A stretch of DNA of 64,000 nucleotides from an uncultured delta proteobacterium (GCA_963745835.1 CAVUZH010000024.1:96001-160000); one strand, 5' to 3'; shown: positions 12,845-22,686, counted from the first letter of the stretch. The notes: generated from the sequence alone by a model not told the origin. Numbers and translations are program-made.

Positions 12845-13879
12845 GGCCGGATCGTAGTCAGCAAAGTCTTGTTTTCAGTTGCGGCCTGAGCCATGGATTC
12901 CAAAGCCGCGCTAATGTGACCGTTTACATTCTGTGAAACTGATTCACTGGCAACGCGAATGGCGTTTTTTATTGCCAGCGCAGTTGACCCGCCATGGGCG
13001 ACAATGGCGACTCCATCCAATCCCAGCAACCGTGCTCCGCCGTATTCGGCGTAATCAAGCTTTCGATAGGCATGCCGCAGCGATCTGTCGGGTCAGCAAA
13101 TAGCCCAAGCGGCTCAACCAGCTTTTCTCAAAGCCGCTTTTTAAAATTTCGCCGGCAAAGCTCGCTACCCCTTCCATGGTCTTCAGTGCCACGTTTCCTG
13201 TAAAGCCATCGCACACGATGACATCGACCTTACCGTTGAAAAAGTCCCGGCCTTCGACGTATCCGACATAGTTTACCGGCGCGTTGTCGAGAAGCTCGCT
13301 GGCCGCTCGGGTCAACTCGTTCCCTTTGCTGTCTTCTTCGCCGTTGCTTAGCACACCGACTCGCGGATTGCCGATACCCAACCCACGCTCTGCGTACACC
13401 GAGCCGATGATCCCAAACTGTAGTAACTGGCGCGGCTTGCAGTCGACATTGGCTCCCGCATCGATGATGATGGTTCCCTTAGATGTTCCGGGGACGATAG
13501 CTAGAATCGCGGGTCGAGTGACTTGAGGTAAAGTGCCGATGACCAGCATCCCGATGGCCATCATGGCCCCCGAGTTTCCGGCGCTGACGACGGCTTGCGC
13601 ATCGCCGCGCTTGATCATCTCGAACGCGACCTTCATCGACGAATCTCTCTTCCTCAGTGCAATGCTGGGGGATTCGTCCATAGATACCGTTTGTGTGGCG
13701 TTAATAACAGGAAAACGGGGGAGCTTGCCGCCGATGCGCAAACATTCTTGTTCAATGGCGAGTTTGTCCCCGACAAGAATCAATTCCGCATCGACGTCTT
13801 GGGCCGCAAGCAGCGCGCCTTCAACAACAACCGCCGGGGCATGATCTCCCCCCATCGCGTCGACTGCGATTTTCGGCAT
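12841..13879 (-). CDS. plsX: Phosphate acyltransferase PlsX, with one +1 frameshift near 13088 (likely sequencing error)
   Basis: IAVDAMGGDHAP, SAGNSGA, DAGANVD, VCDGFTGNVALK; removing one base restores ...TRRSLRHAYRKLDYAEYGGARLLGLDGVAIVAHG. Confidence 0.93.
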
Positions 13880-18398: not shown

Positions 18399-18848
18399 TC
18401 AGTGAAGCGGGCCGCCGCCGCGCGACCCGGTGACAGTGGAGTCCAACAATGGGCGTCTGCCGGCAAAGCCCTCCTCAATTCTGTGCCAGTAGGCAATCTC
18501 AGGTTCGCCGTATTGCCAACAAAGAAAGACAATCTCTTCTCCCAATAAACAGGGAAAATCGAGCAATCCTTGTTCTACGCCTTTGCACACACAGCCATGT
18601 TGTTGAATTTCATTGACAGCGTCGTTGATCTGCTTGATCAAGGCGGCGATCTCATCGTTCCGCTGTAAACGGCGCATCAGGTTGGGCGTTTCCGGGTCGA
18701 TCTGCTCCGCGCGAATCACTATTTCGCTCTTGGCCCGCAGGCGTCGTATGATCTCCAAAATGCGTTCGATCGTCGGACGCACTATAGGCAAAAGGGCGTT
18801 CGCTTCGTTGATCGTGAACAATCTGGAATAAGGCGAAGATGAATCCAT
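18399..18848 (-). CDS. DUF2203 family protein
   Basis: FTINEANALLP, GLLDFP, FLCWQYGEPEIAYWH..EGFAGRRP; likely start ATG 18848. Confidence 0.85.
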   Translation of the reverse strand: MDSSSPYSRLFTINEANALLPIVRPTIERILEIIRRLRAKSEIVIRAEQIDPETPNLMRRLQRNDEIAALIKQINDAVNEIQQHGCVCKGVEQGLLDFPCLLGEEIVFLCWQYGEPEIAYWHRIEEGFAGRRPLLDSTVTGSRGGGPLH

Positions 18849-18885
18849 ATCATCCACTTTGGTCGTCGGCACTTCAACGAGAAAG

Positions 18886-19750
18886 TTATAGCCGCAGGCC
18901 GGTTCGAACAGCTTTAAGTAATGCAATGTTATCGGAATGGCCGGTCATGTGAGCCGTGATTTTGCCGCGAATGGGTCTTCCCAGCAGATAAAAATCCCCG
19001 ATAATGTCAAGAATTTTATGACGCGCCAGTTCCTCCGGAAAGCGCAAGTCTGTGTTGACGATCTTCTCATCATCGATCAAGATACAATTACTAAGCTTGC
19101 CTCCGTTGATCAAGCCGAGCTTTTGCATTTTCTCCATATCGCGCAGAAAACCGAAGGTCCTTGCCGGCGCAATTTCTTCTTTGAAGGAAGTCGGACTCTG
19201 ATGTGTGAATAGTGTATTCCTGCACGCCGACCGGTTTCGGATAGTTCAGAACGTAGTGGACCGAAAACGTCTCCGCTGGTTCAATACTGATCCATTCTCC
19301 TGCGTCGTCACCGATGCGATAAGGACGATCAATGACGATTCTTGACCAGCTTTCGTCTTGCTCGTGCAGCCCAGCTTCCTCGATGAGTTCGCAAAACTCC
19401 GCCGCCGATCCATCTAAGATCGGAACCTCGCCTTGAACTTTCACCAGCAAGTTCGTAATTCCGTAACTATGGAGGACCGCCAAAAAATGCTCTACGGTCG
19501 CAACCGTAAAACCACGATGGCTCAATGATGTCGCAAATCCCGTTGATCCGACATAATCTAAATGCGCGGGTACGCTCACATCACCTGAGATACCCTCGAA
19601 TAAGATGCCGCTATTTGGCGGGAGCGGATGCAGAATCAATCCTGTTTTGATACCTGAATGCAATCCTTGACCTGAACTCACCACGCTTTTTCTTAAGGTC
19701 TTTTGTCGGATCGGTTCGGCGGATGTGACTATCCGCGGAGCTGTACTCAC
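18886..19750 (-). CDS. lpxC: UDP-3-O-acyl-GlcNAc deacetylase LpxC, +1 frameshift near 19211; probably fused to the upstream receiver domain
   Basis: QKTLRKSVVSSGQGLHSG, ATVEHFLAVL, EVPILDGSA; after the frame change EIAPARTFGF, RHKILDIIGD and TGHSDN. Confidence 0.93.
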
Positions 19751-20207
19751 TGAGTCGGTCTCCTCGACCCCATGGCGCTGTGCCGATTTCGGAGAGGCTC
19801 TGAGCTACAGGGAGCTCGCCCAGAGCGCGTTGCACGGTATGAAGCAGGCCGTCGAGCGAGACCGGCTTTTCGATAAAATCGAAAGCGCCAAATTTAGTTG
19901 CGGTCACCGCCGTGTGGATATTTCCGTGCCCGGAGATCATCACGACATTGGTTGAAGGCTTCTTGCTCTTGATCTCCTTGAGCAAGCCAATACCATCGAT
20001 TTTCGGCATCCAGATGTCGAGCAGCACGAGCCCGGGTTGCTCCGCTTCGATCATTTCCAGGACGCAAGTGGCATCGGCGGTATCGAGTACCCGATATCCC
20101 TCGTCCGTCAGCACTTCTTTAACCGACTCCCGAACCTTGTCCTCATCATCGACAACAAGGATGGTTTTCTGAGATGATAACTCCTTCACCGCCCCTCCAT
20201 TTTTCAT
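19611..20207 (-). CDS. Response-regulator receiver (REC) domain, NtrX-like, no output domain; likely the N-terminus of LpxC
   Basis: ILVVDDE, LVLLDIWMP (phospho-Asp), MISGHG, GAFDFIEKP; sequence after about 19800 is non-conserved and overlaps lpxC. Confidence 0.88.
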   Translation of the reverse strand: MKNGGAVKELSSQKTILVVDDEDKVRESVKEVLTDEGYRVLDTADATCVLEMIEAEQPGLVLLDIWMPKIDGIGLLKEIKSKKPSTNVVMISGHGNIHTAVTATKFGAFDFIEKPVSLDGLLHTVQRALGELPVAQSLSEIGTAPWGRGDRLSEYSSADSHIRRTDPTKDLKKKRGEFRSRIAFRYQNRIDSASAPAK

Positions 20208-22438
20208 AGCTGCGCAGCCTTCCTTTTAAACTCGCGTAGCGCGCCCTGCTCCCGCACCGGAAACTCTATCACGAACCTGGTGCCGCGCGGTTCGTTGTTC
20301 CGTACCCGAATATAACCGCGATGATCTTCGACAATTTGATTGACGATGGTTAGCCCCAGGCCGGTACCCTGTTTTTTAGTGGAAAATCCAGGCTCGAATA
20401 TTCTAACTCGAGCTTCCGCCGCCATGCCGCAACCATCGTCGGCAACTTCAAGGTAGACCGTGTTCCGAGTGCGATCATAAGCACTCGATATCTGCACATG
20501 GCCGCCGTCGCCAACGGCGGCCACGGCGTTGTCTAATAAGTTAATCATTACCCGTTTGATTTGCTCCCGATCGAGCTCTAGCGCCGGCAACTCTCCCGGC
20601 CGGAATTCAAAATCGATATGGTTATGTCCTTCCTTAAACAGGAATAGCGCGTCCTGGACAATCACGTTTAGGTCGTTGGGCACCGGCTGAGCCGTAGGTA
20701 GTCTTGCGAATTGCGAAAACTCATTCACCAGATTCTTGAGCTCGACCACCTGCTGGATAATCGTCGTCGTGCATTTGTCCAGTACCGCGCCGTCCCCTTG
20801 CAACAGTTTAGCATAGCGTTTGCGCAGTCTCTCGGCCGAGAGCTGTATCGGCGTGAGCGGATTTTTGATTTCGTGAGCGATTCGCCGCGCCACTTCGCGC
20901 CACGCTTCCATCCTCTGTACTTTTTGAATCTGGGTAATGTCTTCCAGAAAAATCATGATACCTAAGCTGTCATTAGCATCATCTCTGAGGGTAGCGGCGG
21001 TCGCAAATACGGTAAGGAGATGGTCTGGTAGCTGTATCTGCAATTCAGTCTCGCTGCTTTCGCGATCTTTGAGGTTGTCGATCAAGTCGCGCATGACCAT
21101 TAGCGGCGCGGTTTCAAACGCTTCCCTGTAGTATCTTCCGAGAGCAGCAGAACCATCCACACCTAACATTTGTTCGGCCGCCTTGTTCCAAGAAGTGATC
21201 TTCCCATTCGGGTCGACAGCAATCACTCCAGCGGTAATATTAGCGAGAAGTGTTTCAACGAACTTGCCGCGACGCAACAATTCCAGGTTGCTCTTCTTTA
21301 AGTCTCGGGTCATCTGGTTGAAAGACTCAACCAAGGTCCCTAACTCGTCATCGCCGGCCGCCTCAATTTGATAATCCCAGTTGCCATGAGCGACTTCGTG
21401 AGTCCCCGCCGCCACCTGCTGAATCGGGATCGTGATTCCTTTGGCAAGATAAAGGCCGAACCAAGTCGCGGCGAAGATAATCACCAGCGTAATTAATAGC
21501 AGGGTCAGAATGTAACTGTTTTTCACCGGGTTCTTCAGAAAACCAAGGTGCTTGTACTGCTCATAGGACCGGGAGATTTCGAGGGCGCGTTTGGTGATGC
21601 TCTTCGGCACGTAATAATCGACTACCACGACTCCCTGAATCCGCTTGCCGCTGTCATAGATCGGAACACCGCCGCGAATAACGTCGCCCTCGCCGAAAGC
21701 CTGAGTTCGGGTAACTTCCAGGCCGCGCAGCGCCCGGTTAAGGAAATCGGCTTCAGCCTTGATGCTAACTCCAGTGGGTACCTGGTCATTGAAAGCCACT
21801 ACTACCGGCAGGTGATCTGGTGAAAATAATTCCACAGTGCCGAGATTGTACTCACGCTGCTTGATCTGGATAAATTCTTTAAGATCGCTCCGCCGTCCGG
21901 TCTCGAACAGCCCCTGTTCAGTGACGCGCCGGCTTAGCTGCCGTGCATAGAACAGCGCGTTGTTTGCCGAGTTTTGATAATAGGTCTGGCCGATTTCCAA
22001 AGATCCCTGAAGCGCGGTCTCGACCTGTATATCGAACCACCTTTCAAAGGAGCGGGTGACGAATCCCCCGGCAATGACGAACAGCAACAGTGTCGGAATC
22101 AGCGATAGGCCGACAAATGCAATCACCAGGCGAACTCTCAGTCGTGAGCCCAGGATCCGCCGTTTGCGTTCGAATACCAGCTTCACCAGGTTTCTGACGA
22201 CCAGAAAAACCAGGAGAATCAGAAGAATGATGTTGATGTTGATTAAGAGAAAGAAAACTATGTTATTGCTGAGAGAATATTCCGACGAGACATCGGGAAG
22301 CTGCACCTCGAAGAATGCAAAGGCCAGCACCACCAGTGAAGTGATGAGAATCGCCAGTCCTTCACGCTTTCGTCGTTTAGTTTCATCCAACGTGGGCGTC
22401 TCGCTGATCTGCTGTTGGGTTTTGAAGGTTTTGCTCAT
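20204..22438 (-). CDS. NtrY-like membrane sensor histidine kinase (TM-HAMP-PAS-HisKA-HATPase)
   Basis: AWREVARRIAHEIKNPLTPIQLSAERL is the NtrY-type H-box; HAMP DELGTLVESFNQM; GTGLGL. Confidence 0.92.
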   Translation of the reverse strand: MSKTFKTQQQISETPTLDETKRRKREGLAILITSLVVLAFAFFEVQLPDVSSEYSLSNNIVFFLLININIILLILLVFLVVRNLVKLVFERKRRILGSRLRVRLVIAFVGLSLIPTLLLFVIAGGFVTRSFERWFDIQVETALQGSLEIGQTYYQNSANNALFYARQLSRRVTEQGLFETGRRSDLKEFIQIKQREYNLGTVELFSPDHLPVVVAFNDQVPTGVSIKAEADFLNRALRGLEVTRTQAFGEGDVIRGGVPIYDSGKRIQGVVVVDYYVPKSITKRALEISRSYEQYKHLGFLKNPVKNSYILTLLLITLVIIFAATWFGLYLAKGITIPIQQVAAGTHEVAHGNWDYQIEAAGDDELGTLVESFNQMTRDLKKSNLELLRRGKFVETLLANITAGVIAVDPNGKITSWNKAAEQMLGVDGSAALGRYYREAFETAPLMVMRDLIDNLKDRESSETELQIQLPDHLLTVFATAATLRDDANDSLGIMIFLEDITQIQKVQRMEAWREVARRIAHEIKNPLTPIQLSAERLRKRYAKLLQGDGAVLDKCTTTIIQQVVELKNLVNEFSQFARLPTAQPVPNDLNVIVQDALFLFKEGHNHIDFEFRPGELPALELDREQIKRVMINLLDNAVAAVGDGGHVQISSAYDRTRNTVYLEVADDGCGMAAEARVRIFEPGFSTKKQGTGLGLTIVNQIVEDHRGYIRVRNNEPRGTRFVIEFPVREQGALREFKRKAAQL

Positions 22439-22473
22439 GGCACCTGCTAAGAGACTAAAATGCGAGAAGAATT

Positions 22474-22686
22474 TTATCTTCTAAAGAGGTACAGAACAAG
22501 GCTGATGAGGATGCTGATAACAATGCACGTGGCGATTGGAAAGTAAAAACTGAAGCGACCTCGCTGGACGTAGATATCACCCGGCAAATGCCCGAGCCAA
22601 GGGATTTTTCCACCGAATGTAAACAGTACTCCGACGGCAATGATTGCGACCCCCAGAATGATCAAAGTTCTACCGAACTCAGGCAT
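22474..22686 (-). CDS. DUF2905 small membrane protein
   Basis: LGHLPGDIYVQRGRFSFYFPIATCIVISILISL. Confidence 0.9.
   Translation of the reverse strand: MPEFGRTLIILGVAIIAVGVLFTFGGKIPWLGHLPGDIYVQRGRFSFYFPIATCIVISILISLVLYLFRR

Follow-up and report, generated by a model that had tools for sequence, protein, structure and literature searches.

The flux into lipid A is set by LpxC, a major antibiotic target whose control outside the enterobacteria is an open question. A locus on the minus strand of a 64,000-nt stretch of DNA from an uncultured delta proteobacterium (GCA_963745835.1 CAVUZH010000024.1:96001-160000; this whole stretch is the window, and all positions are counted from its first nucleotide) raises the question in a specific form. 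Here, a gene for an NtrY-like sensor histidine kinase overlaps a reading frame for a receiver (REC) domain, which in turn runs into lpxC. Is the receiver part of the LpxC protein, and if so, would the kinase act on the enzyme itself? Such a receiver, permanently attached to the cell's only LpxC and encoded beside a sensor kinase, would be a direct route from signal to enzyme. Judged from the window, its relatives, and public contigs, the natural gene is one that encodes a single REC-linker-LpxC protein, 439 aa long in an intact same-genus version. We further consider it probable that the locus is a two-gene signalling unit, made up of an NtrY-like membrane kinase and a translationally coupled response regulator with LpxC as its output, and that the split seen in the window is an assembly error. 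The parts of the locus are as follows.

20204..22438, minus strand: NtrY-like sensor histidine kinase, 744 aa, with an N-terminal membrane region, HAMP, PAS, HisKA, and HATPase_c
18886..20207, minus strand: whole REC-linker-LpxC gene as assembled, interrupted by two single extra bases
19833..20162, minus strand: NtrX-like REC domain (Response_reg at residues 16-125), with D20, D21, D64, S92, and K114
19706..19832, minus strand: variable linker joining REC to LpxC (about 34 aa in an intact relative); contains the first frameshift
19781: first extra base (minus strand GGC[A]CAG), which moves the REC frame out of register with lpxC frame A
19213..19705, minus strand: N-terminal part of LpxC (frame A), with GLHSG and the Glu-His pair (VEHF)
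19212: second extra base (minus strand ATACA[C]TATT), which puts lpxC frame A out of register with frame B
18886..19211, minus strand: C-terminal part of LpxC (frame B), with HKILD and TGHSD; stop codon at 18886-18888

The REC-LpxC gene and its two extra bases

As assembled, the TGA stop codon of the kinase gene and the ATG of the REC frame at 20207 overlap by 4 nt (ATGA). The REC frame corresponds to an open reading frame (ORF) at 19611-20207 (198 aa), whose Response_reg match (E 4e-31, 107.9 bits against a cut-off of 30.2) is accompanied by the motifs VVDDED, LLDIWMP (with Asp64 at 20018-20016), MISGHG, and IEKP; a Pfam scan finds no AAA+ or HTH domain in the protein. Past about residue 142, the frame matches nothing, and it overruns the lpxC GTG at 19750 by 140 nt. 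The lpxC gene is itself divided between frame A (19091-19750; LpxC profile positions 1-175, E 6e-43, 147.8 bits) and frame B (18886-19137; positions 190-266, E 3e-26, 92.9 bits), each against a cut-off of 27. Upstream, the lpxC frame is open as far as a TAG at 19807-19805, and a GAGGAG (19765-19760) lies 9 nt 5' of GTG 19750. These observations agree with the initial annotation, made from the sequence alone, which had described the 4-nt overlap, an NtrX-like REC with intact DD, DIWMP, SGHG, and KP and without AAA+/HTH, the unrecognisable 140-nt overrun, an lpxC frame open back to about 19804, intact LpxC motifs, and the GAGGAG. It had also proposed that deletion of one base in 19750-19804 would restore a REC-linker-LpxC protein of about 440 aa, noted the same +1 error type in plsX and within lpxC, and added the caveat that separate or dual translation could begin at GTG 19750.

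Both frame changes are +1, with one base to skip at each. Relative to four same-genus sequences (L009, L011, L012, and L022; 88-97% DNA identity), the window gene has exactly two single extra bases, the first of which falls, at about 19781, within the interval proposed earlier, and the same-genus genomes G004 and G001 likewise lack the bases at 19781 and 19212. The intact same-genus protein, P0001, has 439 aa, in line with the predicted length. Polished reads over the frameshift had been suggested as a check, and in public short-read contigs all three of the covering runs (X2, X3, and X9, from three studies) have one base fewer at 19781/19783 and at 19212/19213, the source sample's own reads excepted. 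Run X1, in which the stretch is best represented, covers neither frameshift site, and its single long piece differs at 15 of 214 bases. When the window is compared with two same-genus genomes over 19 kb, 12 one-base indels are common to both relatives; nine of them are intergenic, and the three in coding sequence (13084, 19212, and 19781) are all a surplus base in the window. The remaining coding indel lies in another gene:

13055-13879, minus strand: plsX, truncated to 274 aa; extra base at about 13084, missing from both same-genus genomes

With plsX broken in the same way by one more extra base, as had been recognized earlier, an assembly error is the likely cause, and the pieces of the three broken genes (plsX once and lpxC twice) point to single-base insertions in the assembly rather than to biology. 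That the gene appears as a REC ORF plus two pieces of lpxC is thus most probably due to long-read assembly errors. The gene itself carries the signature of a working gene, as its codon differences to relatives are mostly synonymous: with the three pieces read separately, we count 47 synonymous and 10 non-synonymous differences to L012 and 24 and 9, respectively, to L009, while the REC piece has 14 synonymous and no non-synonymous differences to L012. On this codon pattern, the REC-LpxC gene is under purifying selection.

A programmed frameshift and a conserved internal start were considered and rejected, as relatives and covering runs lack the extra bases and as a Shine-Dalgarno motif with a start codon is not enriched in the linker. 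Such a pair occurs in the linker of 19 of 58 genes, compared with 32, 6, and 12 of 58 in control windows inside lpxC, and is therefore no commoner in the linker than within lpxC; the caveat of separate or dual translation from GTG 19750 finds no support here. In L011 (genome G006, same genus, 30 contigs), one base is missing inside REC at the window-equivalent position 19959, which leaves its REC frameshifted. This suggests the same sort of assembly error in a second long-contig genome.

Conservation, range, and descent of the fusion

The 40 nearest genomes, which belong to three families of one order, all contain LpxC, with a single match in 39 and two in G036. Separate REC and lpxC genes in relatives, the arrangement that the initial annotation had held against a fusion, are not what the order displays: all 30 loci fetched from its three families have REC and LpxC in a single frame (28 of 28 if the unpublished G018 and G012 are set aside), with L011 counted although, owing to its own frameshift, no more than the C-terminal half of its REC shares the LpxC frame. 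The ten other nearest relatives have stop-to-stop LpxC frames of 436-633 aa, except G031, G020, and G009 (contig end).

In P0001, Response_reg spans residues 16-125 (106.3 bits) and LpxC residues 168-433. In two alignments of fusion proteins, with 25 and 55 members and identities as low as 44%, D20, D21, D64, S92, and K114 of REC are invariant, as are E239, H240, H396, K397, D400, and H423 of LpxC. We take the former to be the acidic pair, the phospho-acceptor Asp, the Thr/Ser, and the Lys of a receiver active site, and the EH, HKxxD, and GH motifs of the latter to be the zinc ligands and catalytic Glu/His. P0001 scores 254.6 bits on the TIGR00325 lpxC model, above its cut-off of 187.25, and by both profile and motifs, the fusion protein is a bona fide LpxC. 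A match to the bifunctional LpxC/FabZ model NF009667 (204 bits, cut-off of 465) comes via the LpxC part. Among the response-regulator models of NCBIfam, REC matches NtrX best (NF051870; 131.6 bits, under the equivalog cut-off of 600). Scoring below the cut-off and lacking the NtrX architecture of REC, AAA+ without GAFTGA, and HTH, the protein is, by these measures, a relative of NtrX and not a member.

The same architecture recurs in databases, where the initial annotation had advised looking for it. Among the best 120 homologues listed in a database search, all 120 carry both Pfam domains, and any names given are "LpxC" only; in the ESM Atlas, 17 clusters (at least 50 members each) have both domains in 100% of members. 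The nearest named relatives are from Syntrophobacter/Syntrophobacteraceae (70-71% identity), followed by Syntrophobacterales (60%) and Candidatus Binatia/Binataceae (50-53%). Within an even sample of the phylum (source genome excluded), fused-type LpxC occurs in 102 of 400 genomes, or about a quarter, and includes all 12 genomes of the same class. We treat it as a distinct group because its members match at E 9.5e-88 or better and the next match is at 1.5e-63. Eleven genomes of family f50, 99-100% complete, gave no REC-LpxC match at E 1e-20 (G119, G186, G217, G247, G277, G305, G332, G382, G406, G430 (g98), and G358 (g231)), and G081 of the same family did match; in these eleven, LpxC may be highly divergent or absent.

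About 30 of the 102 fused-type LpxC domains lie in open frames of 630-840 aa, which we refer to as the long form. In all 12 long forms fetched, a receiver is followed by LpxC some 290-350 residues on, and GAFTGA and the Asp-Glu Walker B are absent. The five long forms scanned with Pfam contain Response_reg, Sigma54_activat (44-109 bits), AAA_lid_14, and LpxC, with no HTH_8 match at E 1e-3 in any of the five, and L116 spans the NtrX NCBIfam model from end to end at 327.9 bits, below the cut-off of 600. Altogether, the 97 LpxC frames collected comprise 59 short fusions, 12 long fusions, and 26 frames without a receiver (one cut by a contig end). In a tree of 95 LpxC domains, obtained by a quick search and without L011 (frameshifted), one identical row, and the two unpublished genomes, the 70 fused domains form one clade (SH-aLRT 100) set against 25 standalone domains, with no standalone member inside it; the fusion may have a single origin. 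Long and short forms are intermixed in the clade, with at least two changes needed for the short form and at least one for the long. Given this parsimony count and the decay of the AAA+ module, we infer that the short forms arose through loss of that module and not that the long forms arose by its insertion.

Eleven LpxC positions (174, 176, 188, 189, 246, 256, 272, 309, 322, 376, and 421 in P0001) are at least 90% conserved in 69 fused domains, with the same residue present in at most 8% of the 25 standalone domains; Lys256 of the fused clade, for example, is Glu in 92% of standalone LpxC. These clade-specific residues may mark a surface that contacts the receiver.

The origin of the receiver is indicated by genomes with a standalone LpxC. 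In G333, G417, and G308, lpxC, a kinase with NtrY_N-HAMP-PAS-HisKA domains, and then a regulator are adjacent, and the regulators have REC, Sigma54_activat (235-251 bits), and HTH_8, with GAFTGA and Walker motifs intact and NtrX again as the best NCBIfam model (495-522 bits). By coordinates, the same neighbourhood is found in G345, G351 (contig 17), G399, and G047. A tree of 82 receiver domains, which has only 122 columns and long outgroup branches, places the fused RECs and the three lpxC-linked regulators on one side of a branch (support 91) and the 12 other sigma-54 regulators of the source genome on the other; identity to the P0001 REC is 51-55% for the three and 30-41% for the 12. From tree and identities, the fused REC is a descendant of an NtrC/NtrX-type regulator kept beside lpxC. 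In G333, a DUF4390 gene (L168:1396-2025, plus strand) lies between the standalone lpxC and the NtrY-like kinase. G351 has both a fused REC-LpxC (contig 12, 97102-98391, L138, 449-aa frame) and a standalone LpxC (contig 17, 104655-105482, L139, 311 aa), and its NtrY_N kinase gene adjoins the standalone copy.

The partner kinase and possible control of LpxC

The kinase of the locus matches NtrY_N at 36.5 bits (cut-off 23.2), with HAMP, PAS, HisKA, and HATPase_c all above their cut-offs, and thus has the complete NtrY_N-HAMP-PAS-HisKA-HATPase_c layout. Its H-box, AHEIKNP, contains H522 (20875-20873), the presumed phospho-acceptor His. Its NCBIfam matches include no NtrY model, the best being a LIC_11548-family kinase (278.8 bits, cut-off of 750). 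It is the only NtrY_N match in the source genome, and among 14 control genomes, only Caulobacter has a match. Linkage to NtrY-like kinases had been marked for examination in the initial annotation. A kinase gene lies directly upstream in 29 of the 30 order-level loci (27 of 28 without unpublished genomes), the thirtieth, L027, having no upstream DNA. The same holds for 8 of 10 fusion loci from more distant genomes, with ruvB further upstream in five; kinase identity is 41-75%. It is also upstream of three of five long forms and, by coordinates, of the long form in nine further genomes. In G093, which has a short form and a kinase encoded elsewhere, no regulator gene lies beside the kinase gene. 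We abandoned a phyletic cross-tabulation of NtrY_N with fused LpxC, as NtrY_N is widespread and its model is weak, missing the G015 kinase at E 1e-5.

The source genome (7.28 Mb, 25 contigs, 97.1% complete) has a single LpxC locus; its estimated contamination is 9.3%. It also encodes at least 12 other full-length NtrC-type regulators, and no regulator in it passes the NtrX equivalog cut-off. Two sigma-54-type frames of 687 aa in this genome (G000:C12:2379-3398 and G000:C19:542583-543602) have identical scores (E 3.2e-77, 261 bits) and could be a duplicated stretch or redundant contigs.

An AlphaFold2 model built from 55 sequences has a mean pLDDT of 86.1 and a pTM of 0.84, with pLDDT below 50 only at residues 1-11 and 134-160. 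The linker (residues 133/134-160) falls below 50 both here and in a model from 25 sequences. The LpxC part superposes on solved LpxC with a Z of 38.6 and an rmsd of 1.7 over 273 residues, and the REC part on solved receivers with a Z of about 21; identity is highest to Brucella NtrX (4d6x and 5m7n, 49-50%), which, together with the NtrX model as the top NCBIfam match, bears out the early description of the receiver as NtrX-like. No solved chain among the structure-search matches covers both REC and LpxC, and Foldseek with the 25-sequence model returned LpxC chains only. Because the pTM of 0.84 was obtained with two domains on a disordered linker, a defined REC:LpxC packing is suggested, and the model hints at a fixed arrangement of the two. 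In 52 short forms measured, the linker is 21-62 aa long (median 33), with a net charge of -4 to +15.

We infer that the kinase phosphorylates Asp64, for which the evidence is genetic linkage (the 4-nt overlap and the adjacency of the two genes), and thereby changes LpxC output. The kinase would sense an envelope- or redox-related signal and autophosphorylate on His522; the phosphoryl group would then pass to Asp64 of the receiver, and the phosphorylated receiver would alter the output of the attached LpxC domain, most likely by shifting catalytic activity through a change in receiver-LpxC packing or in oligomerization, or, as the next likeliest route, through a change in LpxC stability. Lipid A flux would thereby come under rapid post-translational control, in a genome in which LapB was not found. 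The best match to the LapB equivalog model in the source genome is 34.7 bits, a weak, TPR-type match against a cut-off of 363; as matches below the cut-off occur in 13 of 14 control genomes, only the cut-off is informative for this model. With no LapB above it, the enterobacterial LapB route is probably missing here. The sole Zn_ribbon_LapB match in the source genome was rejected, being RadA and not LapB. The locus as a whole suggests that lipid A synthesis in this soil bacterium is switched directly by a signalling system.

A more specific proposal, which we advance tentatively and rate somewhat below an even chance, is that phosphorylation by the kinase makes the receiver reversibly dock on, or leave, the LpxC catalytic domain, and that lipid A balance is the ancestral job of NtrYX-type systems. 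The latter would follow from the series that leads from lpxC beside ntrY and a sigma-54 regulator, through a regulator-LpxC fusion with a decaying AAA+ module, to REC-LpxC. If true, an ancestral role in lipid A would account for the envelope phenotypes of NtrYX in proteobacteria. The fusion also serves as a "Rosetta stone": it connects NtrYX-type systems with lipid A by a line of evidence separate from the Rhodobacter and Caulobacter transcripts and from the Desulfovibrio binding data.

Several points weigh against the two-gene signalling unit as we read it. Our literature search found no experiment on any fusion member, so phosphotransfer and any effect on LpxC are predictions, and the expected direction of control is conflicting, as the separate regulators are sigma-54 activators and alphaproteobacterial NtrYX lowers lpxC transcripts. 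The NtrY_N gene is on another contig or far off in the short-form families f21, f23, f11, f67, and f107 (in genomes where both gene positions were listed), and no kinase was found beside L040, L041, L118, L114, and L115. NtrY_N kinases are also present in 258 of 401 genomes of the phylum, which makes co-occurrence alone weak evidence. The AlphaFold2 model from 25 sequences (pLDDT 73.6, pTM 0.61) is too weak for domain packing, the packing in the larger model is read from pTM alone, without coordinates or an error map, and the variation of the linker in length and charge fits a passive tether no less well than a regulated one. Finally, the LpxC open frames of G031 and G020 have only 334 and 343 aa, and none of the runs can be clearly assigned to the source sample, the strain's own reads lying outside the comparison.

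Three other explanations were weighed against this reading. One of them, which we regard as unlikely, is that the receiver governs the lifetime or location of LpxC and not its catalysis, its phosphorylation state either exposing LpxC to FtsH, Lon, or Clp or shielding it from them, or recruiting it to the membrane, in the manner of single-domain receivers that serve as adaptors for proteolysis. Receiver-type proteolysis adaptors exist, such as RssB and CpdR, and the P0001 REC scores 88.6 bits on the RssB model. In the window's family, LpxC stops directly after its domain, with no tail, and the lack of a LapB above the cut-off means that another turnover route would be needed. These points are countered by the ranking of the RssB match below NtrX (131.6 bits), FixJ, and NtrC, by the pTM of 0.84 with its hint of direct domain packing, and by the neighbouring genes, ruvB, DUF2905, and DUF2203, which include no conserved protease or adaptor gene. 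In favor of a role in turnover, LpxC control in the organisms studied is mostly proteolysis, according to a review (PMC12444477).

It is decidedly improbable, in our estimate, that the receiver is a leftover or a phosphate sink, with the fusion merely co-expressing LpxC with a kinase whose output lies elsewhere. Parts of this protein can evidently lose function, given that in the long forms the sequence lying between REC and LpxC has degenerated since the fusion; the linker is poorly conserved, and the 12 or more other full-length NtrC-type regulators of the source genome could be cited for an output elsewhere. A useless 130-aa domain on the sole LpxC ought to be lost, however, and REC was instead retained at every loss of AAA+, the short forms needing at least two changes on the tree, with no standalone member in the fused clade of 70 rows. 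None of its five phospho-acceptor-site residues varies among 55 proteins with identities as low as 44%, and the REC piece has 14 synonymous and 0 non-synonymous differences to L012. Least probable of all, to the point of being nearly negligible, is a split that is real in this strain, giving either separate REC and LpxC proteins, the latter from GTG 19750 after GAGGAG, or an lpxC pseudogene. Both extra bases are in the assembly as given, and GAGGAG does lie 9 nt ahead of the GTG; since no run is demonstrated to be the source sample and X1 lacks coverage of the sites, a real frameshift in this one strain keeps that small probability. A start at 19750 would still leave the frameshift at 19212 within the catalytic domain of the genome's sole LpxC, however, and the linker is not enriched in Shine-Dalgarno motifs with starts. 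The mainly synonymous differences to relatives, the extra base of the same kind in plsX, and the intact frame in near-identical contigs from three studies likewise argue for an uninterrupted gene. We retain the reading of a kinase paired with a single REC-LpxC protein.

Two further genes flank this pair:

18399..18926, minus strand: DUF2203 gene, directly downstream (Pfam DUF2203, E 1e-36)
22474..22686, minus strand: DUF2905 gene, between ruvB and the kinase gene (Pfam DUF2905, E 3e-24)

DUF2203, a conserved neighbour, is downstream of the fusion gene in 21 of 40 loci (L003-L042), and family f3 is without it. Translation probably begins about 26 codons into the listed ORF, as matches start at residue 27 in most loci; the protein has no NCBIfam match at E 1e-5. 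DUF2905 and ruvB are upstream of the kinase gene in L033, L034, and L038 as well, a conserved gene order.

Comparison with known systems

Our search, which subscription journals lay beyond, found no paper describing a receiver-LpxC fusion. A 2025 review of lipid A regulation deals with proteolysis, MurA, and transcription; nowhere does its main text use the words receiver, response regulator, fusion, or fused.

The NtrY/NtrX systems of Rhodobacter sphaeroides, Caulobacter crescentus, and Brucella abortus resemble the locus in having an NtrY_N-HAMP-PAS-HisKA-HATPase_c kinase and a receiver that is the nearest to the fused REC. NtrX lacks GAFTGA, a feature that it shares with the long fused forms. 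In contrast to NtrX, which is DNA-binding and has a transcriptional effect on lpxC, the window protein is without AAA+ or HTH, and LpxC itself would be the output. NtrYX is tied to lpxC and to lipopolysaccharide levels (PMC7240162, PMC12444477): it lowers lpxC transcripts in Caulobacter (PMC12444477) and in Rhodobacter, where the deletion strain has an 8.8-fold increase and no NtrX site was found at lpxC (PMC7240162).

A second likeness is to the kinase and NtrC-family regulator DVU2931/DVU2934 of Desulfovibrio vulgaris, from the same phylum-level group. According to Rajeev et al. 2011 (PMC3333781), the single mapped target of DVU2934 is lpxC, and lpxC adjoins an operon orthologous to DVU2931/DVU2934 in Syntrophobacter fumaroxidans. 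The clusters of lpxC, kinase, and sigma-54 regulator in our three standalone-LpxC genomes fit this DVU2934-to-lpxC connection. The likeness is one of gene order and target, and the Desulfovibrio system differs in being transcriptional, with a separate sigma-54 activator, whereas here the receiver is fused to the enzyme.

In enterobacteria, LapB (YciM), FtsH, and YejM control LpxC by regulated proteolysis through separate proteins. The source genome differs in having no LapB above the cut-off. What the two would have in common is the principle, stated in PMC12444477, that LpxC is controlled post-translationally to balance lipid A. Bifunctional LpxC/FabZ (NF009667) is another natural LpxC fusion; it unites two enzymes of the same pathway, and its additional domain is C-terminal, whereas the present fusion has a signalling domain at the N-terminus.

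The closest functional parallels would be response regulators with enzymatic outputs, such as the methylesterase CheB, the GGDEF proteins PleD and WspR, and the HD-GYP protein RpfG, in which phosphorylation gates activity. By analogy with these proteins, which likewise have an N-terminal receiver, a linker, and an enzyme domain, the fusion most likely works as an enzymatic-output response regulator. Their outputs are signalling enzymes, whereas the output here would be a biosynthetic one, the sole LpxC of the cell, which catalyses the committed step in an essential pathway. Response regulators with enzymatic outputs are a known kind, and the architecture is clearly one present in databases without remark; aimed at LpxC, it would be a widespread and apparently undescribed variant of two-component control.

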